Source: an uncultured Actinomycetota bacterium (GTDB lineage Bacteria > Actinomycetota > Acidimicrobiia > Spongiisociales > UBA4744). Taken from it: a DNA stretch of 64,000 bases. Under the pieces are notes generated by a model. It was not told the DNA's origin. It worked only from the letters and a program-made list of their open reading frames with translations, and searched no databases. Of this stretch, positions 28,232-43,506 are shown one piece after another (positions within the stretch are counted from its first letter, which is position 1; each line of letters starts with the position of its first letter). Made by a program: the position numbers and the translations under genes. The stretch is from assembly GCA_963717135.1 (NCBI GenBank), contig CAVQVN010000006.1, positions 75,995 through 139,994 on the forward strand, read 5' to 3'.

Positions 28232-31200
28232 ATGACCAAACATGGCGCGGAGGGCCGGTTCGAAACCAGCAGCGGAGACGAGGCGTACCGCATCTCCAAT
28301 TACGATCGGCTGCCGCCTTTCTTGATGAGCGTCGTTTCTGATTCCAACCACTGGATGTACCTGTCGAGCGGCGGCGGAATCACCGCCGGACGGGTCGACG
28401 AGGAGAACTGCCTGTTCCCGTACGAGACGGACGACCGTCTCCACGTCGCCTATGGTGTTACCGGTCCCGTCACCATCGTCCGGGCCCATACCAAGGCCAA
28501 CGGGATGACGATCTGGCGTCCGTTCGATCCCCACCGAAGTGGCGACCGGTTCGAACGCCATCTCTACAAGAGCGTGGTGGGGAATTGGGTGGAGTTCGAA
28601 GAGATCGATCACGAGTTGGGATTGATCTTTGGATACCGGTGGTCGACCAGCGACCGTTTCGGCTTCATCCGCTCAGCCAGATTGCGACGAGATAGCAAGT
28701 CGCCGGTGCGCTCGGCTCAAGTGCTGGATGGCTTGCTCAACGTCATGCCGCCGGGAGTGCCACTTTTGTCTCAGCAAACCTCCAGCACTCTGGTCGACGC
28801 GTACAAACGATCCGAACTGGACTCCTCCACCGGCATGGGGTTCTTCACCCTCGAAGCCCGTATAACGGATCGGGCGGAAGCTGCCGAGTCGTTGCGCACC
28901 AACGTCGTCTGGTCTCCGGAGTTCGACGAGTCGGTCGTGCTCCTGGATGCCGGACCGGTGGGTCGTTTCCAGGAAACGGGCACAGTGGAAAGCCGGCATA
29001 TCCGGGTCGGACGCCGGGGCGCCTACTTGATGGCATTCGATCTGGAATTCGAAGACGAGGGCCCGGCCCGGTGGGACCTGATCGCCGACGTCGGACTTGG
29101 ACACCGCCAAGCACAGCAACTACGTGCCCTGATCCTGAACCGCTCCGACCTCCAGCCCCTCATCCAAGCCGACGTTCAGGCCGGAGCTGCCCACCTCCGC
29201 ACCATTATCGCCGGCGCCGACGGCTTCCAGCACACCGCCGACCGGATGGCCGCCGCGCACCACGCCGTCAACGTGCTCTTCAACGACATGCGGGGCGGGG
29301 TCTACTCCGACAACCATTCCGTCGAAATATCCGACTTCGTGAGTTTCGTCGGCACCCGCAACCGCCGGGTCCACGAGGCCCATCGGGACTTCCTCACCAA
29401 ACTTCCACCAAAGCTCGAAATTGGCGCATTGCGGGAAGCGGCCGCCACCAGAGGCGGCGCCGACTTGCTGCGGCTGGTCTCGGAGTATCTCCCCATCTTC
29501 TTCAGCCGCCGGCACGGAGACCCCAGCCGACCCTGGAACCGTTTTTCGATTCGAGTCAAGCACCGGGATGGGTCGCGGCGCCTCGACTACGAGGGCAACT
29601 GGAGGGACATCTTCCAGAACTGGGAGGCCCTATCCCAGAGCTTCCCCGGTTTCCTCGAGAGCATCGTCGCCAAGTTCGTCAATGCCTCAACGATGGACGG
29701 CCACAATCCATACCGCCTCACCCGCCGGGGCATCGACTGGGAGATCCCCGAACCGGACAACCCATGGAGCAACATCGGCTATTGGGGTGACCACCAGATC
29801 GTGTACCTGCTTCGGTTTCTCGAGCAATTGGACCGGTACCACCCCGATGCCATCACCCGGATTCTGGACCGGCAAGTCTTCAGCTACGCCGACGTTCCCT
29901 ACCGGATTGCTCCGTTCGACCAGATTGTCGTGGATCCGAAGAACACGATCACCTTCGACACCGAGGCGGCCCGGCGGATCGACCGCCGCGTCGAAACGGT
30001 GGGTTTCGACGGCAAACTCGTGGCGAACGAATCCGGATCGGTCTTGCACGTCACCTTGGCCGAGAAGCTGCTGGTTCCTGCCCTCGCCAAACTCTCGAAT
30101 CTGGTCCTCGACGGAGGCATCTGGCTGAACACCCAGCGTCCCGAGTGGAACGACGCCAATAACGCCCTGGTCGGCAACGGGCTCTCGATGGTGACCCTCG
30201 CTTATCTACGGCGCTACCTCACCTGGTTGACCCGCCTCTTCGAGAACGAAGCACGCACCTTCCCCATCTCTACCGAAGTAGCCGGCTGGTGCCACGAGGT
30301 GTTGAGCATTCTCCAGGATCACCGCCCGATCCTGAATGAACCGGTGACCGATTCGCGCCGCCGCCGGCTGCTCGATGCGCTGGGAGGAGCATTCTCCGAT
30401 TACCGCAAGCAGGTCTACCGGGATGGATTGACGGGCCGGACCGACGTGGAGGCTCGGACGCTGGTCGAGTTGGGCACAACTGCGCAGGCCTTCCTCGATC
30501 ACAGTATCTACGCCAACCGGAGACCAGACGGTCTCTACCACTCGTACAATCTGCTGGTTCTCACAGCGGATCGGGCCGGCATCGAGCATCTCGACGAGAT
30601 GCTGGAAGGACAGGTAGCCGTGCTCAGCTCAGGGATCCTCTCCCCTCCCGAGGCGGTCGAGCTCATCGAAGGCTTGTTCGACAGCGCCCTGTATCGGCCC
30701 GATCAAAACAGCTTCATGCTGTACCCGGACCGGCGGCTTCCATCGTTTCTGGAGAAGAACCTGATACCCCCTGAAACGGTCGGCGCCAATCCCCTGCTGC
30801 AGGCCCTCGTGGAAGAAGGCGACACCTCGATAATCGAGAAAGATGCCTTGGGAAATTACCGATTCAGTCCTGATTGTGAGACGGCCGCCCGGGTCGAAGA
30901 GGCCCTCGACCGCCTGGCGGACGTCCCCCGTTGGTCGGATCTGGTCTCCGCCCATCGCGCCGACACCCTCGAGGCCTTCGAATCGGTCTTCCATCACCAT
31001 GCCTTCACCGGCCGCTCGGGTTCCATGTACAAATACGAAGGACTAGGCAGCATCTACTGGCACATGGTGGCGAAACTCCTCGTCGCCATTCAGGAGGTGT
31101 TCTTCGAGGCGGTCGACCACGATGCTGCCGGTGAGACCGTCACCCGCCTCCGGGATGCCTACTACCGGGTGCGGGACGGTCTCGGTTTCAACAAGACACC

Positions 31201-31672
31201 GGATGAGTACGGAGCCTTCCCGATGGATCCCTACTCGCATACTCCGGCCGGGGCCGGCGCTCAGCAACCGGGTATGACGGGCCAGGTCAAAGAGGAGATC
31301 ATCACCCGCATGGGCGAGCTGGGCATCCGCGTGTCGAAAGGAACCGTCCGTTTCGAGCCTCGCTTGCTCCGCCGAGAGGAGTTTCTGACCGAACCGGCCT
31401 CCTGGCAGGTTCTCGATCTGGCCGGTGGCAAGGAGACCTTGCTCCTCCGGCCCGGATCGCTCGGCTTCACCTTCTGCGGAGTCCCCATCGTGTATCGCTT
31501 GACCGGCGCCGGCCCGACTGTTTCTACTGTCGATGGGAGCGGACGGACCACGACCGCGGCCGGCACTCAGCTTGATGAGGCCACCGCCCGTCTGCTCCTC
31601 CGGCGGGCGGGCCGTATCCGCCGGATCGAGGTTGAGATCCCGGAATCTGCGCTCATCCCTCAACCGGCTTGA
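28232..31672 (+). CDS. large (1146 aa) cytoplasmic protein of unknown function; possibly (alpha/alpha)6-barrel glycoside hydrolase/phosphorylase-like
   Basis: Single uninterrupted ORF with normal codon usage and no antisense competitor. Motifs NIGYWGDHQIVYLLRF and RPEWNDANNALVGNG resemble the GYxW..RD and DWND/TWMD catalytic-region motifs of GDE/GH15/GH94-type barrels (from memory, unverified). Confidence 0.8.
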   Translation: MTKHGAEGRFETSSGDEAYRISNYDRLPPFLMSVVSDSNHWMYLSSGGGITAGRVDEENCLFPYETDDRLHVAYGVTGPVTIVRAHTKANGMTIWRPFDPHRSGDRFERHLYKSVVGNWVEFEEIDHELGLIFGYRWSTSDRFGFIRSARLRRDSKSPVRSAQVLDGLLNVMPPGVPLLSQQTSSTLVDAYKRSELDSSTGMGFFTLEARITDRAEAAESLRTNVVWSPEFDESVVLLDAGPVGRFQETGTVESRHIRVGRRGAYLMAFDLEFEDEGPARWDLIADVGLGHRQAQQLRALILNRSDLQPLIQADVQAGAAHLRTIIAGADGFQHTADRMAAAHHAVNVLFNDMRGGVYSDNHSVEISDFVSFVGTRNRRVHEAHRDFLTKLPPKLEIGALREAAATRGGADLLRLVSEYLPIFFSRRHGDPSRPWNRFSIRVKHRDGSRRLDYEGNWRDIFQNWEALSQSFPGFLESIVAKFVNASTMDGHNPYRLTRRGIDWEIPEPDNPWSNIGYWGDHQIVYLLRFLEQLDRYHPDAITRILDRQVFSYADVPYRIAPFDQIVVDPKNTITFDTEAARRIDRRVETVGFDGKLVANESGSVLHVTLAEKLLVPALAKLSNLVLDGGIWLNTQRPEWNDANNALVGNGLSMVTLAYLRRYLTWLTRLFENEARTFPISTEVAGWCHEVLSILQDHRPILNEPVTDSRRRRLLDALGGAFSDYRKQVYRDGLTGRTDVEARTLVELGTTAQAFLDHSIYANRRPDGLYHSYNLLVLTADRAGIEHLDEMLEGQVAVLSSGILSPPEAVELIEGLFDSALYRPDQNSFMLYPDRRLPSFLEKNLIPPETVGANPLLQALVEEGDTSIIEKDALGNYRFSPDCETAARVEEALDRLADVPRWSDLVSAHRADTLEAFESVFHHHAFTGRSGSMYKYEGLGSIYWHMVAKLLVAIQEVFFEAVDHDAAGETVTRLRDAYYRVRDGLGFNKTPDEYGAFPMDPYSHTPAGAGAQQPGMTGQVKEEIITRMGELGIRVSKGTVRFEPRLLRREEFLTEPASWQVLDLAGGKETLLLRPGSLGFTFCGVPIVYRLTGAGPTVSTVDGSGRTTTAAGTQLDEATARLLLRRAGRIRRIEVEIPESALIPQPA

Positions 31673-31692: not shown

Positions 31693-33165
31693 TCATCGCT
31701 CCCCAACACAAACCTGCCGAGGTGGGTCCCCCGTCAATACCTCATAGACCATCGCCAGCTGCTCACAGGGAGGGTCACCCAGCCGCTCCAAACGGATCTC
31801 TTCATCGTTCAGCCCCCAGGACAGGACTTCGGCCGCGTACTCCACGCCGCGTTCTACCCACGGCACCTCGTCGGCCGCCCATACGTCCCTTCCGGATAGC
31901 TCCAACACCTCGGCGCGGAGGTCCTCGTCCGTATGGTCGAGCAGCCAGACGTGGCCCAGCTCGTGCAGCATCCCGGCTCGAATGGCGAGCGGGTAGACAT
32001 CGCACGTCTCCGGGCTTCCACAAAGATCCTGCTCGTAGATACACAGCACGAGATCACGAGAGGTTTGGTCGCTATCTACTCTGCCGAAGACCCCTTCGCA
32101 ACGCCGGGTCGGCTCGAAGGTAACCGAATCGACCTGCGGCCGGGCGAGACCGGCGCCGACGAACTGCTCCAAACCCCACCGCACGAGACCGTCGAGCCTT
32201 TCGGAGCCGTTACGGATCTCGATGACGCGCCCGCCGGCAGCCTGGATAGTGCCGGTCACAACCCGGTCGCGGGGCTCCGGCAGCCTCAGACCCGTCCACC
32301 AACCGTCAATCAGATCTATTGAGGTACACCGGCGGAAAGACTCGAGCTCCGGGTAGCGATACTCATCAACGATCTCACCGCCGTCGAGCACCCACAGGAC
32401 CGCAGTCCTGAATGAGCATCCGTCCCGCTCGAAGCGATAGAGGCCGATTGCCCTTTGTGGATCTCGTCCATACGAGATCGGATCGAGAAACAGGGCCGTG
32501 CCCCTGTTGTCGGCCGCCTGCTCGCCTGCGATGGTTTCGATCGAGACGCTCTCCCAACGCTCGGAGGAGCTCTTGACCAGCCGGGCGATGGCTTCCCACC
32601 CGGCGGCCTCGACTCCCCCGAGCGGATCGCTCACCGTGGCCCCGGGCGCATACCACTGCGAAGCCAGGTCGGTATTCCCGGTCGACCAGGCTTGGGCGAG
32701 GCTCGTATAGAGGCCCTGGTAAATCCCGGCTAGCTCGGGCGAGGCGCGCAGGCTTCTCTCGAGGGAACCCAGATCAACGAGGATCGTGTCGCGGTCGATC
32801 AGGCCCGTATCCATGTCGCTCACGATCGCGCCGAAATCCCCCGAGCCGGGCCACGCCACGAGGCTGACTGCCTGGTCGGCCCCCAGGTGCACGTCGAGAA
32901 GGTCCCGGCTCAGGTCTGCCCTATGCGAGGCCAGCCAGTCGGATACCGGCACGGTTGCACCCAGGAAGTCGCTCGTGCGGTCGGCAATCTCGGCCTCGGC
33001 CGAGTAGAAGTCGAGAACCCCGTAAACGTCGTCGTCGGTGAAAGCTTGCGACAGTTGCTGGAAGTAGGCCTCCGCTTCGTCACCCCACGTGGCGGACGAC
33101 GTGGACGCGTCAGACGAGCCGCAGGCCGACAGCGAGATCACCAGGAGTGACGGCAAGATCAACAT
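31693..33165 (-). CDS. secreted lipoprotein with HExxH (zinc metallopeptidase-like) motif
   Basis: ORF 31693..33315. Lipobox LLVISLSAC after hydrophobic h-region. HELGHVW motif near C-terminus. Start provisionally at ATG 33165 (no clear RBS; could be further upstream). Confidence 0.65.
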   Translation of the reverse strand: MLILPSLLVISLSACGSSDASTSSATWGDEAEAYFQQLSQAFTDDDVYGVLDFYSAEAEIADRTSDFLGATVPVSDWLASHRADLSRDLLDVHLGADQAVSLVAWPGSGDFGAIVSDMDTGLIDRDTILVDLGSLERSLRASPELAGIYQGLYTSLAQAWSTGNTDLASQWYAPGATVSDPLGGVEAAGWEAIARLVKSSSERWESVSIETIAGEQAADNRGTALFLDPISYGRDPQRAIGLYRFERDGCSFRTAVLWVLDGGEIVDEYRYPELESFRRCTSIDLIDGWWTGLRLPEPRDRVVTGTIQAAGGRVIEIRNGSERLDGLVRWGLEQFVGAGLARPQVDSVTFEPTRRCEGVFGRVDSDQTSRDLVLCIYEQDLCGSPETCDVYPLAIRAGMLHELGHVWLLDHTDEDLRAEVLELSGRDVWAADEVPWVERGVEYAAEVLSWGLNDEEIRLERLGDPPCEQLAMVYEVLTGDPPRQVCVGER

Positions 33166-33492
33166 CCAAGGCGTGAGGGCTCTCAACCGGTTAGGACGGG
33201 CTGCCGGCGTAGCCGCCCCGGTGAGTGTTCGGGCACCGTGCAGCCGGCATCCTTCATGGTCGGCAGTCCCCTGACAACGCCCTCTCATTGGCCCGAGTGT
33301 ACGGCGAGCGCCCATTTGGCGAGCGCCCGGCTCTACCTCGCCATCTTCGAGGGCCGCCGGCGGCTCTCCCCCTCGTGGAGTGTCGGTGCGCTACTCATCT
33401 GGTCTGGGCGACGGTGGTGGAAACGGTCACCTGAGCCGACATCGACGCTTCCCAGCTCCTATGCTGCTCTGCGCCTCGGAGAGGGAGGAACA

Positions 33493-33987
33493 ATGGATCC
33501 GTTTGATGTTGGTTTACTCGTTCTGCGGCTCGTAGCGGGGACCGTGATGATCGCCCACGGGATCAATCACGGTCGCAACCTCGCGAGCACGGCCGCCTGG
33601 TTCGAGAAGCTCGGCTTCCGCCAGGCTCGCATGCAGGCGTTGATGTCCTCGGGGACCGAGCTGGCAGTCGGGGCCGGACTGATCTCCGGTTTGCTCGCCA
33701 CGCCGGCCGCGGCGGGGCTGGCGGCGATCATGGTGGTCGCCTGGGTCTCGAATCATCGCAAAGCCGGGTTCTTTGTCTTCAACCGTCCAACCGAAGGGTG
33801 GGAGTACGTCATGACCCTCACCGCCATCGGTGTGACCATTGCCACCCTGGGCGCCGGGGAGATTTCCCTCGATGGGGTGATCGGCATCGATCTGTCGGGT
33901 TGGACCGGTTTGCTGATCGGCCTGGGCGGCATCGTGGCCGGCTTCGGACAGCTGGCTACTTTCTGGAGACCACCAAAAGAAACCTGA
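33493..33987 (+). CDS. DoxX family membrane protein
   Basis: ORF 33238..33987 trimmed to ATG 33493 (MDPFDVGLLVLRLVAGTVMIAHGINH) with GAGGGAGGAAca RBS. 4 TM DoxX pattern. Confidence 0.8.
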   Translation: MDPFDVGLLVLRLVAGTVMIAHGINHGRNLASTAAWFEKLGFRQARMQALMSSGTELAVGAGLISGLLATPAAAGLAAIMVVAWVSNHRKAGFFVFNRPTEGWEYVMTLTAIGVTIATLGAGEISLDGVIGIDLSGWTGLLIGLGGIVAGFGQLATFWRPPKET

Positions 33988-34171
33988 GGCCACCTGAGGG
34001 GAACCGGTCGGCGGGGCAATTCCCCTGCTCTGCTCTCCCTCGACCAGCGTGGTGCCGCCACCCAGGAAGAGGTGTCAGCCCTACCCGGTAAACCGCGCTG
34101 ACACTGTTGCCGCCCGAAGCGCTCCACGCCACACTGCCCGAACGCACAATCGCCGGTTGAGGGAGGATCGG

Positions 34172-35476
34172 ATGACAATCTCGGTGTTTCTCGCCGACGA
34201 CAACCTCATCGTGCGAGAGGGTGTGAAGGCATTGCTGGACCTAGAGGACGACTTCGAGGTAGTCGGGGAGGCCGTCGACTTCGATGGACTTGTCGCGGGA
34301 GCCAAAGCTACGAATCCCCAGGTGATCGTCACCGACATTCGCATGCCCCCCGATTTCTCCCGGGAAGGCATCGAAGCCGCCAAGGAGGTGCGAAAGCGCT
34401 ACCCGGGCACCGGCGTCGTGATCCTTTCCCAGTTCGATGATCCCGACTACGCCGTCAGATTGCTTTCCGAGGGAGCGGCGGGGTATGCCTACCTCCTCAA
34501 GGATCGGGTTGGTGAAGGAAACCAGCTGGCCCGGGCGGTGCGGGAAGTTGCAGCAGGGGGGTCCGTTCTCGATCCCAAGATCGTGGATGCATTGACCACT
34601 CCGGTCAGGGCCGATGCCTCACTGTCGCCCGGAGAAGAGGACCTCCTTCAGCAAGTCGCTGAGGGCCGGACCATCAATGCCATCGCTGCCCAGCGCAAGA
34701 CAACCCCTGCCGACGCCGACGCCGCCATTGAAGCGCTGTTCAAGAGACTGGCTGAGGGTCTCACCGCGGGGCGAAGCGACAGTCTCGAACGGCTGAGAAT
34801 GCTGCAGAAGGCCATCGTGGAACGCAAGGAACAAGGTGAATCTCTCAGCAGGCTGCTCCCCGGCGGAGTCGCTGAAAAACTCCGCCGCGAAGGTCAGCGG
34901 ATTGGCGAGACAGAAATGCTCGACGTGACCGTCCTGATGGGGGACATCCGCGGATACACGACAATCGCCGAGCGAACCGATCCCAGCGTCCTGGCCGGTC
35001 AGCTGAACGAACATCGGGCAGCCATGAATCATGCAATTCTCGACGCCGGCGGCACCATCATGCAGTTCGTCGGCGACGCGGTAATAGCCGTGTTCGGCGC
35101 CCCGCTCCCCCAGGACCATCACGCCGAGCGGGCGGTTGTCACTGCCGAAGCCATGCACGCTGCACAGGTTCGCCTCAACGCCGCATGGAAGACCGAAGGC
35201 AAGGAGCCTTTCGGTCTCGGCATCGGGTTATCGACAGGCATTGTGGCTGCTGTGGTCTTGGGCTCGGAGGAGCGCCTCGAGTACACGGTGATCGGAGACA
35301 CCGTCAACCTCGCCCAGCGCCTTCAGCAATGGGCCGAGCCGGGCGAGACAGTGTTGAGCGAACCAACCTGGGCGGCTTTGAGTGTTCCGCCGGCTGCCGA
35401 CGTTCTTCCCGCGGAGAAAGTCAAAGGCCGTGAGGCGCCGGTGTCGGCGTACCGCTTCCCGAGGAGGGTCGGATGA
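34172..35476 (+). CDS. response regulator with NarL-type receiver, degenerate LuxR-type HTH and C-terminal class III adenylyl/guanylyl cyclase domain
   Basis: ATG 34172 after GAGGGAGGA. REC motifs (FLADDN..., VTDIRMPP, phospho-Asp). HTH-like LSPGEEDLLQQVAEGRTINAIAAQRK. Cyclase motifs VLMGDIRGYT, FVGDAVIAVFGAP, GLSTGIV..GS, IGDTVNLAQRLQ. Confidence 0.85.
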   Translation: MTISVFLADDNLIVREGVKALLDLEDDFEVVGEAVDFDGLVAGAKATNPQVIVTDIRMPPDFSREGIEAAKEVRKRYPGTGVVILSQFDDPDYAVRLLSEGAAGYAYLLKDRVGEGNQLARAVREVAAGGSVLDPKIVDALTTPVRADASLSPGEEDLLQQVAEGRTINAIAAQRKTTPADADAAIEALFKRLAEGLTAGRSDSLERLRMLQKAIVERKEQGESLSRLLPGGVAEKLRREGQRIGETEMLDVTVLMGDIRGYTTIAERTDPSVLAGQLNEHRAAMNHAILDAGGTIMQFVGDAVIAVFGAPLPQDHHAERAVVTAEAMHAAQVRLNAAWKTEGKEPFGLGIGLSTGIVAAVVLGSEERLEYTVIGDTVNLAQRLQQWAEPGETVLSEPTWAALSVPPAADVLPAEKVKGREAPVSAYRFPRRVG

Positions 35477-37659
35477 ACGTTGACCTCTCCGACCGCGCTC
35501 GCCTCCGGATCGGTGTCACATTCGGTGCCGTCTCCGCCGGGCTGTCGGTGGCGTCGATGGCCACGCTTCTCATCCTCGGCGACTGGAACTTCCTCGTTGA
35601 GATCTCGGGCACCGTGTTCGGTCTGATGGGCGCAGGCTTCGGTGTGCTGACGATCGTGATGATCCGGTCCCAACCGAAGAACGGGGCGGTGTGGGCTATC
35701 GCGTGGGCGGGGGTCTTCGCTTCGCTGTACGTTGCGGGTGCGGCCGGCGCGCTCCTCCTCGCCCGTGGCGCGTTTCCCGGGCTCACGTACGAGGTGTTCC
35801 GCGAGCTCAGCCCCGCCCAGCTCCCCCGGCCTGCGGCGTTCGCCATCCACTTCCGTTTCTGGACCGTGTACCCGGCGATCTGGCTTCCCCTCACCCTGGG
35901 CCTGCTCCTGTTCCCCGACGGCCACCCGCCGTCACCCCGATGGAAATGGGTCGGCTGGTGGAGCGTCCTCGCCATTGCCTTGGGAGCAGCGGCGGCAGCA
36001 CTGTCTGGCAACCCATGGAGCACCGTCCCCATCCGGGCCTCCGAATCGACCGTCCCCGGAACCCTCGGATCGCTCATTACGGCGGGGTTTCTCCTGGCGG
36101 CGCTGTCGGCGGTTGTGTCGGTTGTCTCGCTCGTGGTCCGGTACCGGCGATCCTCGGGGGTGGCCCGGAGCCAGATCCGGTGGATCGTCCTGGGCGGTGC
36201 ATTCCTGGTCGCCTTCATCTTCGTTGTGCCGATTTTTGAGACGGAGGGCCCGTCGAGCATCGGCTCGGAGCTCATCGGCGCGGTCGCCATCTTGATGCTG
36301 ATGGCCTCCTACGGCATCGCCATCACCAAGTACCGCCTCTACGACATCGATGTTGTGATATCGAGAACCGTCACCTACGGGGTCTTGGCCGCCTTCATCA
36401 CCGGCGTGTATGCGCTCCTGGTCGTGGGCATCGGTTCACTGCTCGGTGGTGGGGATGAGCCCAATCTGGTCTTGTCAATCGTGGCAGTAGCCGTCGTGGC
36501 GGTGGCCTTCGAGCCGCTGCGTCGGCGTGTTCAGCATTGGGCGAACGTCCTGGTGTACGGCAAGCGGGCGACCCCGTACGAGGTACTTGCCAACGCCACG
36601 ACACGCCTCGCCGACACGAGGGACCCTGATCAGGCGCTCACCGAGATCACCCAACTCGTTGCCGATGGCACGGGGGCGTCCGTGGTGGTTTTGTGGCTGA
36701 CGGTCGGGGAGGTAATGCATCCGCGTGTTTCGTCGCCGGTCGGGGCGATCGAGGAACTCGTTCCGGTCGGGACCGGTGGCGATCTGTCCGATGTTCCGGG
36801 GGATCGGGTGGTGGCGGTCCGGCATCGTGGTGAGGTTTTGGGTGCCCTATCCATTACGAAGGAACGCGGCGACTCGGTCACCGGAGGGGACGAGAAGGTG
36901 CTCGCCGATGTGGCGGCGGGGGCAGGGGTGTTGTTGCGCAACATCGGGTTGAACGCAGAGTTGGCTGAACGGGCTGCTCAACTGCGGGTGTCGCGGCGTC
37001 GTTTGGTTGCGGCCCATGATGCGGAGCGGCACCGGTTGGAACGGGATCTTCATGATGGGGCCCAGCAGCAGGTCGTTGCGTTGAAGGTGAAGCTGGGGAT
37101 TGCCCGGACGTTGGCGGAGCGTGAGGGTGCCGAACAGGTGGCGGCGATGGTGGCGTCGCTGTCGGACACGACCCAGGAGGCGGTTGATGGGATGCGGGCG
37201 GTTGCGCATGGGATCTACCCGCCGTTGCTGGAGGCCGAAGGGCTCGAAGCGGCACTCGGCGCCGTCAAGCGGTCGATCCCGGTCCCGGTGACCCTCGAGG
37301 TGAGGGACCTGGGTCGGTACGCCCGACCGGTCGAAGGGAGCATCTATTTCGCCGTGCTGGACACCGTCACGCGGGCCGTCGACCACGGAGCATCCAGCAT
37401 CGTCATCTCGCTCGGTGGCAACGACGGGATGGTCGGATTCTCGATCCGCCACAACGGCAATGTCGGAGATCTCACCGTGGTCGAAGACCGCATCGACGCC
37501 CTTGAAGGCACCGTCACCGTAACCGTCGAACCGAGCGGATCAGACATCCACGCACAAGTTCCCGAAAGTCCCGAACGGCCTGCTGATCGCCCCGGTGCGG
37601 TCCACATGACGCCGGCCAGCCCCATCCGTTCCGCCGCCGAAGTGTCGCTCCCAAGATGA
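35473..37659 (+). CDS. sensor histidine kinase, NarL-partner type (polytopic N-domain + HisKA_3 + HATPase)
   Basis: 728 aa. ~8-10 TM helices. Dimerisation/phospho-His box ERHRLERDLHDGAQQ. ATPase region. ATGA overlap with upstream cyclase-RR. Confidence 0.85.
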   Translation: MNVDLSDRARLRIGVTFGAVSAGLSVASMATLLILGDWNFLVEISGTVFGLMGAGFGVLTIVMIRSQPKNGAVWAIAWAGVFASLYVAGAAGALLLARGAFPGLTYEVFRELSPAQLPRPAAFAIHFRFWTVYPAIWLPLTLGLLLFPDGHPPSPRWKWVGWWSVLAIALGAAAAALSGNPWSTVPIRASESTVPGTLGSLITAGFLLAALSAVVSVVSLVVRYRRSSGVARSQIRWIVLGGAFLVAFIFVVPIFETEGPSSIGSELIGAVAILMLMASYGIAITKYRLYDIDVVISRTVTYGVLAAFITGVYALLVVGIGSLLGGGDEPNLVLSIVAVAVVAVAFEPLRRRVQHWANVLVYGKRATPYEVLANATTRLADTRDPDQALTEITQLVADGTGASVVVLWLTVGEVMHPRVSSPVGAIEELVPVGTGGDLSDVPGDRVVAVRHRGEVLGALSITKERGDSVTGGDEKVLADVAAGAGVLLRNIGLNAELAERAAQLRVSRRRLVAAHDAERHRLERDLHDGAQQQVVALKVKLGIARTLAEREGAEQVAAMVASLSDTTQEAVDGMRAVAHGIYPPLLEAEGLEAALGAVKRSIPVPVTLEVRDLGRYARPVEGSIYFAVLDTVTRAVDHGASSIVISLGGNDGMVGFSIRHNGNVGDLTVVEDRIDALEGTVTVTVEPSGSDIHAQVPESPERPADRPGAVHMTPASPIRSAAEVSLPR

Positions 37660-39761
37660 CGATGGATACGAGCTTTCGAGCCAGACCCTCACCGTGGCCG
37701 TGGTTGGCGCTCGTCGTCGTGGTTTCTGCCTCAATCGTCGGAGTCGCCGGTGCTGCTCTTGACGCACCATCGCCGATCACCTTCATCAACGAAGCGGCAT
37801 GGGCAGCACTCCCGACCCTGTTCGTTGGTCTCGGCGTCCTCATCGAAGTGCGACAGCCAGGGAATCGGATCGGGTGGCTACTCATCGCCATCGCCGGAGG
37901 CCAGGCGCTCAGCGGTCTCACGGACTTTGCGGTGGTTCGCATCGACTCGGCTCCCGAGAGTCTGACCGTGGGCCTCTTCCTCCTCCTGTGGGCCGAGAAT
38001 TCAGCCTGGGCCGCGTTCGTCTTCCCGACATTCCTGCTGCTGTACGTCTTCCCGACTGGCCGACTGCTCTCGCGCCGGTGGGTGTGGGTCCCCGTGTCGA
38101 TGATGGTGATGATCGGAATCCTCCTCGTGAGCTTCGTCGCGCAGACGGAGGTCGGCCCATTTGACGAAGGGTGGCATCTGGCGAATCCGATCGGGTTCCT
38201 GGAAGCGGACACCGTTGGCGTCATCCTTGCCCCCTGGGCTGTCGCACTGATGATCCTGGCCGTGGGCGGAATCGTCGCCGTTGTGATGCGCTTTCGAAGG
38301 GCTGCGGTCATCGAGCGGGCCCAAATCAAGCTGGTTCTCGTATCGGTCGTCTTCTTCGCTGTCTCATACGGAGTCCTGCTATTGGGCGAGGCCTACTCAG
38401 ATCCCTCATCGCCCGTCGCGCTCCTGCTGCCAATCGGGTTCGGTGGCATACCGGTGGCCATCGCAATGGCCGTCCTCAAGCACGGGCTCTTCGAGATCGA
38501 TGTGGTGATCAGTCGGTCGTTGACGTTTGGTGTATTGGCGGTGTTCATCGGTGGGGTGTATGTGGCGATCGTGGTGGGGATCGGTGCCCTGTTCGATCAA
38601 GCCGATGGCTCGAATGTTGGTTTGTCGGTGATAGCGACCGCAGTGGTGGCGTTGGCGTTCCAACCGGTGCGTTCGCGGGTGGAGCGGTGGGCGAATCGGT
38701 TGGTGTATGGGAAGCGGGCAACGCCGTATGAGGTGTTGGCGCGGTTCTCGCATCGGGCGGCGGAGGAGTCTGATGAGGATGTGTTGGCCCGGATTCCTCG
38801 TTTGATTGTGGATGGGACGGGTGCTGCGGAGGCGGCATTGTGGGTGCGCACGGGCGACGGTTTCCGCACGACCTCGGTGTGGCCCGAGGACGCGTCGGAG
38901 CGAACGCTTGAGGACGACGCCGCCTTTGAGGATCCCGACGGTGATGTGTCGTTGCCGGTGGTCCACAACGGCGAGCTCCTTGGTGGGATCTCGTTAGTGG
39001 CGACGCGGGGTGGTTCGATCACGCCTCCTGAGCGGGAGTTGTTGGCGAATCTGGCGGATGGGTTGGGATTGACGTTGCGCAACAGTCAGCTCACGAGCCA
39101 GTTGCGTCGGCAGGTGAAGGATCTACAGAGGTCCCGTGACAGGGTGGTGTCGGCGGCTGATGAGGCGAGACGGTCGTTGGAGCATGATCTCGATTCGGGT
39201 CCGCAGCAGCAGTTGGTGGCGGTGAAGGTGAAGTTGGGTCCGGTGCGGAGGATGGCCGAACAGGCCGGTGCCGTCCGCGCGGCTGAGGTATTGGCCGGTA
39301 TCGAGGCCCAGGCGTCGGAGGCGATCCAGGCGGTGCGGGACTTCGCTGCGGGCATCTATCCGCCGTTGTTGGGTGCTGAGGGATTGGCGGTGGCGTTGGG
39401 TCAGGAGGTCCGCAAGGCGGCGTTGCCGGTGGATCTCGAGGTCGATGGTGTGGGGCGGTATCTGCGTGAGGTGGAGTCTGCGGTGTACTTCTCGATTCTC
39501 GAGGCGCTCCAGAACACCGCCAAGTACGCCGAGGCATCACGGGCCGTCGTCAAGCTCAGCGCAAGCGATGGTGACCTGCGGTTCGAAGTCTTGGACGACG
39601 GGCGAGGGTTCGACGTTGCATCCGTATCTCGAGGGGCTGGGCTCAATGGCATCGCCGACCGAATCGACACAGTTGGAGGCTCATGGCGTATAGCCTCGAA
39701 ACCCGGATCAGGAACGACCGTCGAGGGAACCGTGCCGGTAAACAACGGGGATAACGTCTAG
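37656..39761 (+). CDS. sensor histidine kinase, tandem paralog of the preceding kinase
   Basis: 701 aa. Shares blocks KHGLFEIDVVISRSLTFGVLAVF, VYGKRATPYEVLA, H-box RRSLEHDLDSGPQQQ, and HATPase_c (GAGLNGIADRIDTVGG). ATGA overlap. Confidence 0.85.
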   Translation: MTMDTSFRARPSPWPWLALVVVVSASIVGVAGAALDAPSPITFINEAAWAALPTLFVGLGVLIEVRQPGNRIGWLLIAIAGGQALSGLTDFAVVRIDSAPESLTVGLFLLLWAENSAWAAFVFPTFLLLYVFPTGRLLSRRWVWVPVSMMVMIGILLVSFVAQTEVGPFDEGWHLANPIGFLEADTVGVILAPWAVALMILAVGGIVAVVMRFRRAAVIERAQIKLVLVSVVFFAVSYGVLLLGEAYSDPSSPVALLLPIGFGGIPVAIAMAVLKHGLFEIDVVISRSLTFGVLAVFIGGVYVAIVVGIGALFDQADGSNVGLSVIATAVVALAFQPVRSRVERWANRLVYGKRATPYEVLARFSHRAAEESDEDVLARIPRLIVDGTGAAEAALWVRTGDGFRTTSVWPEDASERTLEDDAAFEDPDGDVSLPVVHNGELLGGISLVATRGGSITPPERELLANLADGLGLTLRNSQLTSQLRRQVKDLQRSRDRVVSAADEARRSLEHDLDSGPQQQLVAVKVKLGPVRRMAEQAGAVRAAEVLAGIEAQASEAIQAVRDFAAGIYPPLLGAEGLAVALGQEVRKAALPVDLEVDGVGRYLREVESAVYFSILEALQNTAKYAEASRAVVKLSASDGDLRFEVLDDGRGFDVASVSRGAGLNGIADRIDTVGGSWRIASKPGSGTTVEGTVPVNNGDNV

Positions 39762-40138
39762 CCGCGAGTGGCGAGATCCCATATCTCGGCCAGAGTCTCC
39801 ATTCCGAACTGGGACTTGGGAACGAACCCGACCGCCCCGGCCTCCAAGGCCACCCTCTCGTAGTCACCCGACTCGTGAGTCGACATAACGAGGACGACCG
39901 GCGGATGGGCGAGGGAACGGATCCGTCGCGTCGTTTCGATGCCGTCCATGCCGGGCATCTGTACATCCATGAGCACGAGATCTGGCTGCAGATGCGCCAC
40001 CAACTCGAGCGCCTGATCGCCATTGACTGCCTCACCCGCGACGTCGAAACCGTTCGTCATCTCCACCACCATCCGCGAGGCCTCGCGGAAAGGCAGTTGA
40101 TCATCAACGATCAAGACCTGGACCTCATCGTGTTTCAT
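39758..40138 (-). CDS. single-domain response regulator (CheY-like receiver only)
   Basis: C-terminal 126 aa of ORF 39758..40483 starting MKHDEVQVLIVDDQ. Motifs VLMDVQMPGMDG, ...FVPK. Convergent with and 4 nt overlapping kinase 2 stop. The upstream ORF extension overlaps the NarL gene in another frame. Confidence 0.75.
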   Translation of the reverse strand: MKHDEVQVLIVDDQLPFREASRMVVEMTNGFDVAGEAVNGDQALELVAHLQPDLVLMDVQMPGMDGIETTRRIRSLAHPPVVLVMSTHESGDYERVALEAGAVGFVPKSQFGMETLAEIWDLATRG

Positions 40139-40211
40139 AGGTTCATCATCCCAGAGGGCAGGTTCGCCGACCACCCGGATTACGCGACTCGTACATTGGT
40201 GCTGGCACGAG

Positions 40212-40880
40212 TCACTCCTTCTGGTCCGCCAGATAGAGGAGAACGGCCCGAACCCTTCGATGGATGTCGTCTGTCTGTGATAGGTCGAGTTTTGTGAAGA
40301 TCGAGTTGATGTGCTTTTCGACGGACCGGGACGAAATGAAGAGGGCGTCACCGATCGCCGCGTTGTTTCCGCCCTCGGCCATTGCGGAAAGCACTTCTTT
40401 CTCCCGCTCGGTGAGCCGGTCGAGAATCGATTGTTTGTCCTTGGAGCGCCCCTCGACGAGCGCGTCCACCACCCTCGAGTCAATGACTGATCCCCCCTCT
40501 GCCACCCGCCGGATGGCAGTCGCCAGCTCGCCGCAATTCGCCACTCGCTCTTTCAGCAAGTAGGCGCGTCCGCTGGATCCTTCCTCGAGCAGTTTCAGCG
40601 CATACCGAGGCTCGACGTATTGGCTGAGAACGACCACGCCCATCTCTGGATGGTTCTCCCTGATGATGCTGGCGGCTCTAATCCCCTCATCCGTCTGCGA
40701 GGGCGGCATGCGGATGTCGGTGACGACAACGTCCGGCCGATGCTCGTCCACGGCCGACAGCAGCTCGTCGTAATCAGCACAGCTGGCCACGAGCAGGAGG
40801 TCCTCATCCAAAGCAAGGACCGCCCTGATGCCCTCACGCATGAGGAGACTATCTTCCGCAATCACGAGCCGCAGAGCCAT
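40212..40880 (-). CDS. NarL/FixJ family response regulator (REC + LuxR HTH)
   Basis: 222 aa. VIAEDSLLMREG, TDIRMPP, HTH LTEREKEVLSAMAEGGNNAAIGDALFISSRSVEKHINSIFTKL. Confidence 0.88.
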   Translation of the reverse strand: MALRLVIAEDSLLMREGIRAVLALDEDLLLVASCADYDELLSAVDEHRPDVVVTDIRMPPSQTDEGIRAASIIRENHPEMGVVVLSQYVEPRYALKLLEEGSSGRAYLLKERVANCGELATAIRRVAEGGSVIDSRVVDALVEGRSKDKQSILDRLTEREKEVLSAMAEGGNNAAIGDALFISSRSVEKHINSIFTKLDLSQTDDIHRRVRAVLLYLADQKE

Positions 40881-41074
40881 GGCGGAAGCCTACTTGTAAC
40901 GTCTTCGCTTTCTGCGGTCGCTGCGGTTGCGAACATAGTGTCTGAGTAGCTCCGGGGGTGACACTCGAATTCACAAAATAGTCGATCCGCTGCCGCTGGT
41001 GTGAGCTTGGGTTTTGTGACCCTGTTGCCGACAACCATGACCACCTAGGGCGGCCGTAGGCGGAAGCCGGATTA

Positions 41075-41446
41075 TCACGTCCACCCCAGCTCGTCGAGGC
41101 GCTCGTCTGAGATCCCGAAGTGATGTCCGACTTCGTGAACCACCGTGATGGCGATCCGGCGGCGCAGTTGATCACGGTCGGAGGTGATACGGAGGTGAGG
41201 GCCCCGAAAGATGGTGATCCGATCCGGCATGGCCCCCTGGTAGGAGATCGGACCTCGCCGGGTCAAGCTCACACCCTCATAAAGACCCAACAACATGCCC
41301 TGATGGTCCTGTTGCTGGCTGCGAGTCGGCCAATCCTCGACCTGTACCGCAATGTTCTCCATGTGCCTGGCGAGGTCGTCCGGGATCGAATCGAGCGCTT
41401 CGGCGACCAGATCCTCGAATTCGGCGAGCGACATGGTCACGGACAT
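41075..41446 (-). CDS. zincin-like metallopeptidase family protein (SprT/DUF1025-like)
   Basis: ORF 41075..41521. HEVGHHFG motif. Start provisionally ATG 41446. Confidence 0.6.
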   Translation of the reverse strand: MSVTMSLAEFEDLVAEALDSIPDDLARHMENIAVQVEDWPTRSQQQDHQGMLLGLYEGVSLTRRGPISYQGAMPDRITIFRGPHLRITSDRDQLRRRIAITVVHEVGHHFGISDERLDELGWT

Positions 41447-41643
41447 GGCTATCAGGGTAGGTGCCGCCCGGATCAACGAAGGGCGGCCACGACCGACTCC
41501 CGGTGATCCTTGGAGGGCCACCGCCAGAAGTCCTCAGCCTGGTACCGGCCGGCGGCGGCCACTCTACCTCGGCGATGGGGCAAATCTGCGCCCTAAAACT
41601 GGTGGGCGGGGCGGGTAGCCGGATGCGGTCGTCGGGAGACGAA

Positions 41644-42474
41644 CTACGTGATGATCTCGATGGCGTCTGATAGGGCGCGGATCAGGCCGAACACGGTGGC
41701 ACCTGCCAGACCGACGAAGCCGAGCAGCATGCCCGCCATGGAGGACCGGTTGGGTCTGAGGGCGTGCCACCACCACAGCAGCGTTCCGGCGGCGGCTATC
41801 ACGACGAAGACCGACGAGATGATCGGTGGGTCGCAGTCGCATGCCTGCCTGGAGAACAGCAGGAAAGGGGCGGCAAGGCCAGCCAGACCGGCACCTACCA
41901 GAGCCAGAAACGCATATACCCAGCGCCCCGTAACGTCATCGATGCCCGGTAGACGACGATCCAAGATTCCGAACATCCACTCCATGAACGCTCCGAACCC
42001 GACAAACAGACCAACAATCATCGCCACCACCAGGACGCTGTTGCCCAAGACCAAGAAGTCGAAGTTGTCAGGATTGAGAACGTCCGAGGTTGCACTACCA
42101 ACCGCAAACAACAGCAGGCCGAACGCGATCCCTCGCCACCGTCCCGCCCACGCCAACCACGGGCGAAACACGAGATACATGACCGCTCCGACAATCCCCA
42201 CCAAAACCCCGACGAAGGTCACCAGACCGAGAGTGCCGCCCAGGGTGATCTCTCCCACAGTGAACCCTGCTTCGGTGGTGGCACCCTGAGCGGAGTCGGG
42301 TGCGACGGCCCCGGCGACCCGCATGAACAGCCTTCCCCCCAAACCTCCAACCAGCAGACCCGTGACCAGACCGACGACCCCCGCCACGGTGATATGGCGG
42401 GCCAACCCCAACAGCGTCTCAAACGGCGGGGGCGACCCATTTCGGGCAGCCAGAGTTAGCCGTTGCAGAGTCAT
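41644..42474 (-). CDS. polytopic membrane protein of unknown function
   Basis: C-terminal 277 aa of ORF 41644..43254 starting MTLQRL (ATG 42474 after GAGGGAGGAC). Gly/Val/Leu-rich helices. The ORF's N-terminal 260 codons are antisense to the DM13 gene and rejected. Confidence 0.65.
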   Translation of the reverse strand: MTLQRLTLAARNGSPPPFETLLGLARHITVAGVVGLVTGLLVGGLGGRLFMRVAGAVAPDSAQGATTEAGFTVGEITLGGTLGLVTFVGVLVGIVGAVMYLVFRPWLAWAGRWRGIAFGLLLFAVGSATSDVLNPDNFDFLVLGNSVLVVAMIVGLFVGFGAFMEWMFGILDRRLPGIDDVTGRWVYAFLALVGAGLAGLAAPFLLFSRQACDCDPPIISSVFVVIAAAGTLLWWWHALRPNRSSMAGMLLGFVGLAGATVFGLIRALSDAIEIIT

Positions 42475-42906
42475 GTCCTCCCTCGCCTGCAAGGTCAACC
42501 AACCTATCAGAGAGTCGGCCCGGTTGGATAAACAAGTGGGTGGTTCCATGATTGGTGTGGCGACGGGAGCGGCCCGCAGACCGTTCCCCAACCGGCTGTG
42601 AGGGCGATAGGGTGGAGTTTGGTCGCGGTTCTTTGGGGAGCCTTGGGCGGGGCCTGCAAGCTGGAGCGCGAGATGCCCGAATTCAGTGAGGCGGGCACCA
42701 CCATCGAGGACGAGTTCGAATCGAGTAGCGAGGTTCGTGACCGTGGCGCGTCGTGATGGTCGCCCGGCGATGCCCGAATTCCGACGGTTCCCGTATTCAC
42801 CGGAACTCCTCTCGGCGTCGCACGTGGATGGTGTTTCGATCTTGTTCATCTCTTCTTGGGAATCCCTCGGGAGCAGACACGGTTCACCGATGAAAAGCGG
42901 AGGACT

Positions 42907-43506
42907 ATGACTGACCAGACCAATACCCGAACGAAACGACGCCTGCTCATGGGAAGCGGAATACTGGCCATCCCGGTGGTTGCGCTGGCTTGGTGGCTTG
43001 GTTCGCCATTGTTCCTGGATACCACCGTCGACGAGACCTTCCCCATCGTTGAAGCTGTCACACCGGACAGCAACGACCCAAGCGCCCAAGGCGATGGACC
43101 CGCGACCCCCGCAGTCCCGGCCCTCGGCACTTCTGAAGCTGAGGAAGCGGCAGCCGGACCCATCCAACTTCTCACAGGCGCATTTGTCGATGCCGACGCC
43201 GCCCATCGGGGCAGCGGATCGGCAACTATCTTCGAGCTCGAAGATGGTGCTCATGTGCTTCGTTTCGAGGACTTCGAGGTGACCAACGGTCCCGACCTAC
43301 ATGTTCTGCTCGTACCGACCGACGACCCAGTCGACCGGGAGTTCCTCTCCGACGTTGGGTATGAGAATCTCGGCAAGCTGAAGGGCAATGTGGGCAACCA
43401 GAACTACGACCTTCCTGAGGGGTTTGACCCGGACGGGTCATGGACGGTCGTGATCTACTGCGACCCGTTTCACGTCGTGTTCAGCACGGCCCGACTGTCC
43501 CGGTGA
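42907..43506 (+). CDS. DM13 domain-containing protein with N-terminal membrane anchor
   Basis: ATG 42907 after GGAGGAct. TM anchor LLMGSGILAIPVVALAWWL. DM13 signature GSGSATIFELEDGAHVLRFEDFEVTNGPDLHVLLV. Confidence 0.8.
   Translation: MTDQTNTRTKRRLLMGSGILAIPVVALAWWLGSPLFLDTTVDETFPIVEAVTPDSNDPSAQGDGPATPAVPALGTSEAEEAAAGPIQLLTGAFVDADAAHRGSGSATIFELEDGAHVLRFEDFEVTNGPDLHVLLVPTDDPVDREFLSDVGYENLGKLKGNVGNQNYDLPEGFDPDGSWTVVIYCDPFHVVFSTARLSR

Follow-up and report, generated by a model that had tools for sequence, protein, structure and literature searches.

The closest described counterparts of the system considered here, the five-gene locus at positions 34172-40880 of the window (the whole 64,000-nucleotide stretch of DNA that was analysed, from an uncultured Actinomycetota bacterium), are histidine kinases whose functions are distributed over two proteins. 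For EnvZ, intermolecular complementation between a His mutant and an ATP-binding mutant has reportedly been achieved, and trans-autophosphorylation is said to have been shown in the laboratory. In Mycobacterium tuberculosis, the functions are reportedly split between the kinases Rv0600c and Rv0601c. Those two sensor kinases act with one regulator, TcrA (PMC3544749), and for the CheA3/CheA4 split kinase of Rhodobacter sphaeroides ultrasensitivity and bistability are predicted where the partner that bears the His also has the phosphatase activity (PMC3591291, in which a domain-splitting experiment with EnvZ is also mentioned). The window locus encodes, in this order, a response regulator with a nucleotidyl cyclase output (RR-cyclase), two tandem membrane kinases (K1 and K2), and, convergently, a stand-alone CheY-like receiver and a NarL-type response regulator (RR). 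Judging from sequence comparison, we assign a probability of about 55% to its being a single, branched two-component system with a naturally split histidine kinase at its core.

As in CheA3/CheA4 and Rv0600c/Rv0601c, the ATP-binding and phospho-acceptor functions would lie on two co-encoded, cooperating proteins, and the His-bearing partner, again as in split kinases, also has a phosphatase motif. In contrast to those pairs, K1 and K2 are full-length membrane paralogues, each with a sensor, a GAF-like region, a dimerization and histidine-phosphotransfer (DHp) domain, and a domain-length catalytic and ATP-binding (CA) domain, so that each could bring its own sensory input; their split goes back to point changes and indels in the motifs rather than to truncation, and they are of the HisKA_3 type, not of the CheA type. 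The EnvZ mutants, in which His-less and ATP-binding-less subunits restore a kinase as a heterodimer, resemble what is proposed for K1 and K2, but that pair was engineered, whereas the K1/K2 arrangement has apparently been fixed by evolution and conserved across a clade. The kinase-kinase partnerships DivL-CckA and RetS-GacS (PMC12189002) likewise include one partner without a catalytic feature; there, however, the other partner is a complete kinase, and of K1 and K2 neither is.

With regard to the regulators, the receiver (REC) domain of RR-cyclase and the whole NarL-type RR belong with the NarL/DesR/VraR-type RRs that work with HisKA_3 kinases, the type to which the DHp and CA domains of K1 and K2 also conform; RR-cyclase appears to have swapped DNA binding for an enzymatic output. 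Receiver-regulated class III cyclases exist, for example those of the cyanobacterial CyaC type. RR-cyclase shares with them a REC domain upstream of a class III cyclase, and with CyaB and CyaC the Thr at the second specifier position, the metal-binding Asp residues, the Asn, the Arg, and the homodimeric fold. It departs from the CyaC type in the vestigial LuxR-type four-helix domain between REC and cyclase, in the change of Lys to Gln, and in its simple, stand-alone build, its gene lying together with those of the kinase(s), of a NarL-type paralogue, and of a CheY-like protein. Rv0386 is another actinobacterial class III cyclase with a LuxR-type domain and, reportedly, with Gln at the substrate-Lys position; its domains follow the opposite order (cyclase-ATPase-LuxR), it has no receiver, its LuxR domain is presumably functional, and the two proteins are not orthologous. 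The Rv0386-type architecture, a cyclase homology domain plus LuxR, is described in PMC3466318.

Reciprocal motif loss in the two tandem kinases

The original prediction of two overlapping, paralogous kinases was confirmed: K1 and K2 are 37% identical (E 1e-106), and the sequence reads as a 4-bp ATGA overlap at both the RR-cyclase/K1 and the K1/K2 junctions, which suggests translational coupling. The alignment of the two kinases is gap-free from K1 residue 364 to 640, so that their DHp geometry matches. K1 matches PF07730 (HisKA_3) at 47.5 bits and has no PF02518 match; in its N-box, LDTVTRAVDHG, the Asn is gone and one residue is deleted, the G1 (DDGxGFD) and G2 boxes are gone, and nine residues are deleted at the ATP lid. 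K2 matches PF02518 at 36.3 bits, with all ATP-binding boxes present (Table 1), and reaches only 20.7 bits for PF07730, under the cut-off of 24. The DxxxQ that follows the His is the phosphatase motif of NarX-type kinases; it is present in K1 (HDGAQQ), and in K2 (DSGPQQ) its Asp is replaced by Ser. Neither K1 nor K2 alone thus has the full set of elements of a HisKA_3-type kinase (H-box plus N, G1, and G2), and the placing of ATP-binding and phosphotransfer motifs on two proteins corresponds, at the level of sequence motifs, to a split kinase as understood in PMC3591291. A His three residues upstream of K2 Asp513 was considered as a substitute acceptor and rejected, this position being H, N, R, Q, or I in orthologues. 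The original prediction had counted two working kinases that duplicate the sensing input, in a stoichiometry of two kinases to three regulators; with K1 lacking the ATP-binding motifs and K2 the phospho-acceptor His, this count is not supported, and one composite kinase serving three receivers is more likely.

Both patterns recur throughout the relatives. LDSGPQQ together with intact N, G1, and G2 is found in essentially all of the ~120 K2-type clusters listed (48-97% identity), and [DN]LHDGAQQQVVAL with N, G1, and G2 lost in ~115 K1-type orthologue clusters (44-96% identity). Column conservation is 0.84 for the DHp and 0.52 for the CA domain of K1, and 0.83 and 0.70, respectively, for those of K2; by this measure, K2 keeps a constrained DHp domain despite the absent His, and the CA domain of K1 is relaxed. 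That the defects merely reflect decay, a redundant duplicate having been pseudogenised in this one genome, deserves almost no credence: frameshifted kinase genes do occur in several metagenome-assembled relatives, but each of the two defect patterns is a fixed, conserved trait of more than 100 clusters, in full-length open reading frames (ORFs) of constant length, and the retained halves of K1 and K2 are under strong constraint. In databases, K1-type proteins are labelled 'histidine kinase' (HisKA_3 only) and K2-type proteins 'ATP-binding protein' (HATPase_c only), labels that hide the mutual dependence proposed here.

K1- and K2-types were adjacent in 10/10 distinct genomic contexts inspected, namely the window, L001 (on the same contig as L005), L002, L003, L006, and L082-L086 (L and P numbers are our designations for related loci and proteins). 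Their order is reversed in L086, so that the pairing is conserved, not the order. Other related loci have one canonical kinase or tandem canonical kinases (L045, L073), which fits a duplication followed by complementary degeneration.

An arrangement without trans-phosphorylation, in which K1 is a phosphatase-only or phosphotransfer-only sensor, K2 a pseudokinase-like modulator comparable to DivL or RetS, and the three receivers are phosphorylated by an unlinked kinase or acetyl phosphate, appears unlikely. It would accord with the DxxxQ phosphatase motif that K1 keeps beside its His, and pseudo-histidine kinases and inhibitory kinase heterodimers are documented (DivL-CckA, RetS-GacS; PMC12189002). 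However, N, G1, and G2 of K2 are near-invariant over the ~120 clusters listed, which argues for retained ATP binding and catalysis, both superfluous for a pure scaffold; the strict adjacency of K1 and K2 and their translational coupling fit complementation; and the module encodes no other kinase.

Related modules hold further kinases that lack the His, keep their ATP-binding motifs intact, and sit beside His-bearing kinases; their H-box reads DLAGG (His to Ala; L011 11101-13449, L015 3871-8432, L016 11026-13368) or DIREG (His to Arg; L067 230-1858, L080 3403-5922). The motif patterns suggest that heteromeric kinases may have evolved repeatedly in these tandem arrays.

As for the sensors, the large polytopic region that had been predicted is supported by hydropathy and by an AlphaFold2 (AF2) model, both giving ~10 helices; in the model, K2 residues 1-355 form a 10-helix bundle (pLDDT 89, pTM 0.83). 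PF16927 (HisKA_7TM) is matched by neither K1 nor K2 of the window and is just passed by a K2 orthologue, P0306, at residues 48-273 (29.1 bits; cut-off 28.6). Both sensors have ~10 helices, are probably related to HisKA_7TM, and are followed by a GAF-like domain.

RR-cyclase and its predicted product

The three regulators all pass PF00072. The receiver residues are D12/D13, D58, T, and K in the CheY-like protein and E9/D10, D55, S, and K in the NarL-type RR; in RR-cyclase, D9, D10, D55, S86, and K110 are invariant in 50 orthologues. Over residues 1-198, RR-cyclase shares 40% identity with the NarL-type RR encoded nearby (E 5e-48), and the receivers of the two are close paralogues with similar alpha-1 helices. 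The alignment stays in register through the helix-turn-helix (HTH) domain, of which three helices lie at residues 153-163, 168-174, and 179-198 in an AF2 model of RR-cyclase (pLDDT 73) that also delimits REC (3-127) and the cyclase domain (247-429). NCBIfam NarL/MctR/MadR profiles cover the protein up to residue 199. The NarL-type RR is above the gathering score for PF00196 (50.0 bits; cut-off 23.5), and an orthologue of RR-cyclase, P0098 (76% identical), passes it at residues 149-193 (24.6 vs 23.5 bits), so that the degenerate LuxR HTH of the original prediction was rightly recognized.

We consider this HTH very probably to be a remnant, outside PF00196, that has lost DNA binding. A dual-output regulator, which acts as a cyclase and continues to bind DNA as a transcription factor, would agree with all four helices being kept in register and with the score of P0098. 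It is nevertheless very improbable, since the recognition-helix positions (TTPADADAAIEALF in RR-cyclase vs ISSRSVEKHINSIF in the NarL-type paralogue) are changed from R/S/K/H/N to A/D/E and vary among orthologues, the window protein gives no PF00196 match even at E up to 10, and the remnant is hemmed in by the REC domain on one side and a coiled-coil linker on the other. The pI of the remnant did not discriminate it from a functional HTH, and the residue-level comparison was used instead.

The linker is modelled as helices 202-221 and 230-239 with low pLDDT, as is to be expected when a dimeric linker is modelled as a monomer. Its LSRLLPGGVAEKL motif is kept in all relatives and is similar to the cyclase-transducer element found ahead of many class III cyclases; for the best Foldseek match, the phytochrome-linked cyclase 6fht, the alignment takes in both the linker and the cyclase (237 columns). 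The cyclase domain scores 69.7 bits for PF00211 (cut-off 21.9) and superimposes on Cya2 (2w01), CyaC (1wc0), and CyaB (3r5g) with Foldseek template-modelling (TM) scores of 0.8-0.88. D258, D302, N379, and R383 align with the catalytic residues of these three structures and are invariant or nearly so in relatives. A pseudo-cyclase devoid of the metal-binding Asp residues, which had been raised as a possible objection, is thus not, to judge by motifs, what the locus encodes; with the catalytic residues intact, RR-cyclase should be active, and it looks catalytically competent with a non-canonical specifier.

The specifier pair, for which Lys/Asp or Glu/Cys had been anticipated, is neither of these but Gln/Thr. 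In the alignment, Gln298 stands where CyaB and CyaC have Lys and Cya2 has Glu (GGTIMQFVGD in RR-cyclase vs GGTIDKFVGD in CyaB), and Thr372 stands where CyaB and CyaC likewise have Thr (the class IIIb state); relatives have Thr or Ser there. Gln at the Lys position occurs in ~60 species-level loci, that is, in all of a 58-94%-identical subfamily with the pattern GT[VI]MQ[FY]VGDAV, whereas the members of a sister subfamily (42-45% identity) all have the canonical Lys but one; the HTH remnant is present in both subfamilies. The same Gln-type cyclase domain (VMQ[FY]VGDAV), with the same LSRLLPGG linker, is also found outside the window at the C-terminus of ~600-aa polytopic membrane proteins, as one-component versions (P0146, P0153, P0174, P0176, P0179, P0180, P0208, P0227). 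The membrane region of P0176 was compared with the kinase sensors; its likeness to that of K2 is marginal (E 0.003), none was seen for K1, and the comparison was not used.

In the relatives, a gene for a cyclic nucleotide monophosphate (cNMP)-binding protein lies directly upstream of RR-cyclase in 50/64 loci of the Gln subfamily, divergently oriented in 46, and in 0/12 loci of the Lys subfamily. The protein, of ~340 aa, combines an uncharacterised N-terminal region of ~230 aa with a C-terminal cNMP-binding domain (phosphate-binding cassette GERAALEGGARTATLRA), and is likely the receptor for the cyclase product.

The product of RR-cyclase is most likely cAMP, possibly with a relaxed purine specificity; cAMP is favoured by the Thr at the second position and by the nearest solved relatives being adenylyl cyclases. 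Gln is able both to donate and to accept hydrogen bonds, and Castro et al. 2005 reportedly found a guanylyl cyclase side activity in M. tuberculosis Rv0386, with Gln/Asn specifiers; relaxed or altered specificity is therefore possible. It is rather unlikely, but worth weighing, that the cyclase makes cGMP or another cNMP and that the Lys-to-Gln change marks a subfamily of new specificity read by the neighbouring cNMP-binding protein. Consistent with this are the distribution of Gln and Lys over the two subfamilies, the confinement of the cNMP-binding gene to Gln-subfamily loci, and the top scores of the neighbour's binding domain against the cGMP-binding domains of PKG, followed by PycTIR and PKA. 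That ranking of PDB entries, however, is not diagnostic of the ligand and does not settle it, and the class IIIb adenylyl cyclase state of Thr372, shared with CyaB and CyaC, and the adenylyl cyclases among the closest solved structures speak for cAMP.

Distribution and surroundings of the module

The domain calls and the gene order of the original prediction, including the convergent CheY-like and NarL-type regulators, were borne out by Pfam and by an ORF check in which all its coordinates were reproduced. The five genes form two convergent units (Table 1), and the lengths and starts of the three plus-strand genes agree with those of more than 100 orthologues each. The stop codons of the K2 and CheY-like genes overlap at 39758-39761 with no intergenic terminator, so that the two operons may interfere in transcription.

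Table 1. Features of the locus, in window positions, and of the cNMP-binding neighbour genes, in positions of the related loci named.
Feature	Position	Strand	Size or residues	Details
Perfect palindrome (candidate operator or promoter element)	34072..34104			GTGTCAGC-N17-GCTGACAC; 70-100 nt upstream of RR-cyclase start
Ribosome-binding site	34161-34166			GGGAGG, before RR-cyclase start
RR-cyclase	34172..35476	+	434 aa	PF00072 4.8e-16, PF00211 3.1e-19
RR-cyclase receiver	34178..34552	+	res 3-127	PF00072; D9/D10, S86, K110
RR-cyclase phospho-acceptor	34334-34336		D55	
Vestigial LuxR/GerE-type HTH (predicted)	34619..34765	+	res 150-198	
Linker	34775..34888	+	res 202-221, 226-239	Long helix extending the fourth HTH-domain helix, then LSRLLPGGVAEKL helix
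Class III (IIIb-like) nucleotidyl cyclase domain	34910..35458	+		PF00211
Cyclase metal Asp	34943-34945		D258	
Cyclase metal Asp	35075-35077		D302	
Cyclase specifier, substrate-Lys position	35063-35065		Gln298	
Cyclase specifier, second	35285-35287		Thr372	
Cyclase transition-state pair			Asn379, Arg383	
K1	35473..37659	+	728 aa	Pfam: PF07730 2.7e-12 only; ~10-transmembrane-helix sensor, GAF-like region, intact DHp, degenerate ATP-binding domain
K1 phospho-acceptor	37051-37053		His527	H-box RDLHDGAQQ, with DxxxQ phosphatase motif
K2	37656..39761	+	701 aa	PF02518 8e-9; ~10-transmembrane-helix sensor, GAF-like region, DHp without His, intact CA
K2 residue at the His position	39192-39194		Asp513	H-box HDLDSGPQQ
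K2 N-box	39513-39515		Asn620	
K2 G1	39594-39614			DDGRGFD
K2 G2	39633-39662			GAGLNGIADR
CheY-like stand-alone receiver	39758..40138	-	126 aa	PF00072 1.2e-25
CheY-like phospho-acceptor	39965-39967		D58	
NarL-type RR, classical NarL/LuxR type	40212..40880	-	222 aa	PF00072 1.7e-16, PF00196 2.2e-13
NarL-type RR phospho-acceptor	40716-40718		D55	
cNMP-binding neighbour, L001	8954-9988	-		
cNMP-binding neighbour, L006	8810-10288	-		
cNMP-binding neighbour, L050	8865-10001	-		
cNMP-binding neighbour, L083	2408-3424	-		
cNMP-binding neighbour, L086	1419-2420	-		

RR-cyclase has more than 120 orthologue clusters (74-94% identity, nearly all of 430-450 aa), from metagenomes of Acidimicrobiia and other Actinomycetota. 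Among species-representative genomes, tblastn gave 593 confirmed matches, a number to which ordinary NarL-type regulators probably contribute, since the receiver contained one of the two patterns searched for. The best 79 loci are from Acidimicrobiia and Actinomycetes, among them the cultured Microbispora corallina (strain NBRC 16416, L050), Planotetraspora thailandica, and Spongisporangium articulatum, and the architecture is present in at least 64 species-level loci. The cultured carriers each have one canonical kinase. Of the 39 loci flanked on either side by 8 kb or more, 34 have a HisKA_3-type kinase, a CheY-like protein, and a NarL-type RR within 10 kb, the CheY-like gene being next to that of the NarL-type RR. 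The genes usually run RR-cyclase (+), kinase(s) (+), CheY-like (-), and NarL-type (-), with one to about six kinases. The module of cyclase regulator, kinase(s), CheY-like protein, and NarL-type RR is thus common, ancient, and widespread in Actinomycetota. The original prediction had asked whether the architecture might be both common and characterised; it is common, and no characterised REC-HTH-cyclase, or this module, was found in the literature within reach of our search.

An element similar to the upstream palindrome stands at the same distance in L001, L002, and L004, and a loose version (GTGCCAGC..CACC...CAC) lies no more than 200 nt upstream in 13 of 78 related loci, vs ~0.4 expected from the background rate; it was not found upstream of the NarL-type RR gene. 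The palindrome is a candidate operator or promoter element by its position and recurrence. No sigma-70-like promoters were found, terminator-like sites were at background level and all inside genes, and an Rfam scan of 33000-42500 (E up to 1) gave no RNA family. Base composition shows no sign of foreign origin (G+C content 0.59-0.66 throughout).

The module is flanked in the window by long ORFs without a Pfam match at 28232-31672 (+; 1146 aa) and 41644-43254 (-; 536 aa, with a multi-pass membrane region at its end), neither of which is kept beside the module in relatives. In many single-kinase relatives, an ATP-binding cassette (ABC)-transporter ATPase follows RR-cyclase, and FtsX/MacB-type permease genes flank the module (examples: L050 11289-11987, L036 11250-12122, L001 16687-18705, L084 14645-16064); in L001 a cNMP-binding domain is fused to the ATPase, a hint that cyclic nucleotides control a transporter there. 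No such transporter lies beside the module in the window. Some metagenome-assembled relatives have damaged modules (L084 1997-3196, L083 3604-4907, L085 2474-4586), with an IS110-family transposase upstream of a truncated RR-cyclase or with a frameshifted RR-cyclase or K2; the damage could be assembly error or real decay.

Proposed signalling scheme and its implications

From the observed domain content, motif states, their conservation, and synteny, we infer a scheme in which complex formation, trans-phosphorylation, the choice of receivers, the sense in which the cyclase is regulated, and the identity of its product are proposals. K1 and K2, co-translated membrane paralogues, would come together through their DHp helices, which are conserved to the same degree, in the simplest case as a K1:K2 heterodimer. 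K2 alone would bind ATP, K1 alone would carry the phosphorylatable His527 and the DxxxQ motif, and K2 would phosphorylate K1 in trans. Phosphorylated K1 may then pass the phosphoryl group to the NarL-type regulator for a transcriptional output, to the receiver of RR-cyclase, and to the CheY-like protein, which would probably be a phosphate sink or kinase modulator; the original idea of a phosphorelay that branches to a cyclase output is upheld in this predicted form. RR-cyclase is presumed to derive from a NarL-type regulator, its HTH, without basic or polar recognition residues, serving as a helical spacer whose last helix would run into a signalling helix and the cyclase-transducer-like element. 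Phosphorylation of D55 may drive or re-register dimerization via REC, the vestigial four-helix domain, and the signalling helix, and dimerization would let the two cyclase domains form two active sites.

Several points weigh against this scheme. The CA remnant of K1 might bind ATP non-canonically, or K1 could be a dedicated phosphatase, the receivers being phosphorylated by another kinase or by acetyl phosphate. With Gln in place of Lys, the cyclase might be less active or inactive. The model of the K2 sensor has no significant fold match in the PDB, and the fusion of RR-cyclase with a CheY-like protein in P0121, considered as Rosetta-stone evidence, was set aside as the only one of its kind, a singleton on a 4-kb contig. 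Finally, the window has no cNMP-binding gene and no remnant of one at 31-35 kb; DoxX-like and SnoaL-like genes occupy its position, and the gene is also absent from the two closest relatives of the window, L003 and L004. A more far-reaching version, in which an obligate heterodimeric receptor kinase with differing sensors performs AND- or ratio-type, switch-like integration and a non-cAMP product is read by a dedicated, as yet undescribed cNMP-binding family with genes beside the module in most Actinomycetota, seems to us quite improbable on the present comparisons.

Each element of the split-kinase system has a precedent, in split kinases, receiver-cyclase fusions, and the Gln specifier. Membrane kinase paralogues that have degenerated reciprocally while keeping their full length, an HTH remnant that serves as a linker, and the conserved five-gene module, joined in most relatives by a sixth, cNMP-binding partner, were not found described in the literature within reach of our search. 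If the proposal is true, K1 and K2 are a natural, widely conserved counterpart of the complementation between His and ATP-binding mutants; they would widen the split-kinase class, so far of CheA-type and truncated proteins, to transmembrane sensors of full length, provide a system in which the predicted ultrasensitivity or bistability can be tried out, and show a route by which tandem kinase duplicates become mutually dependent. RR-cyclase, for its part, would tie two-component directly to cyclic-nucleotide signalling in Actinomycetota and illustrate how a DNA-binding domain may be reused as a mechanical linker, and the conserved Gln specifier and the co-located cNMP-binding protein of the relatives point to an uncharacterised second-messenger branch.

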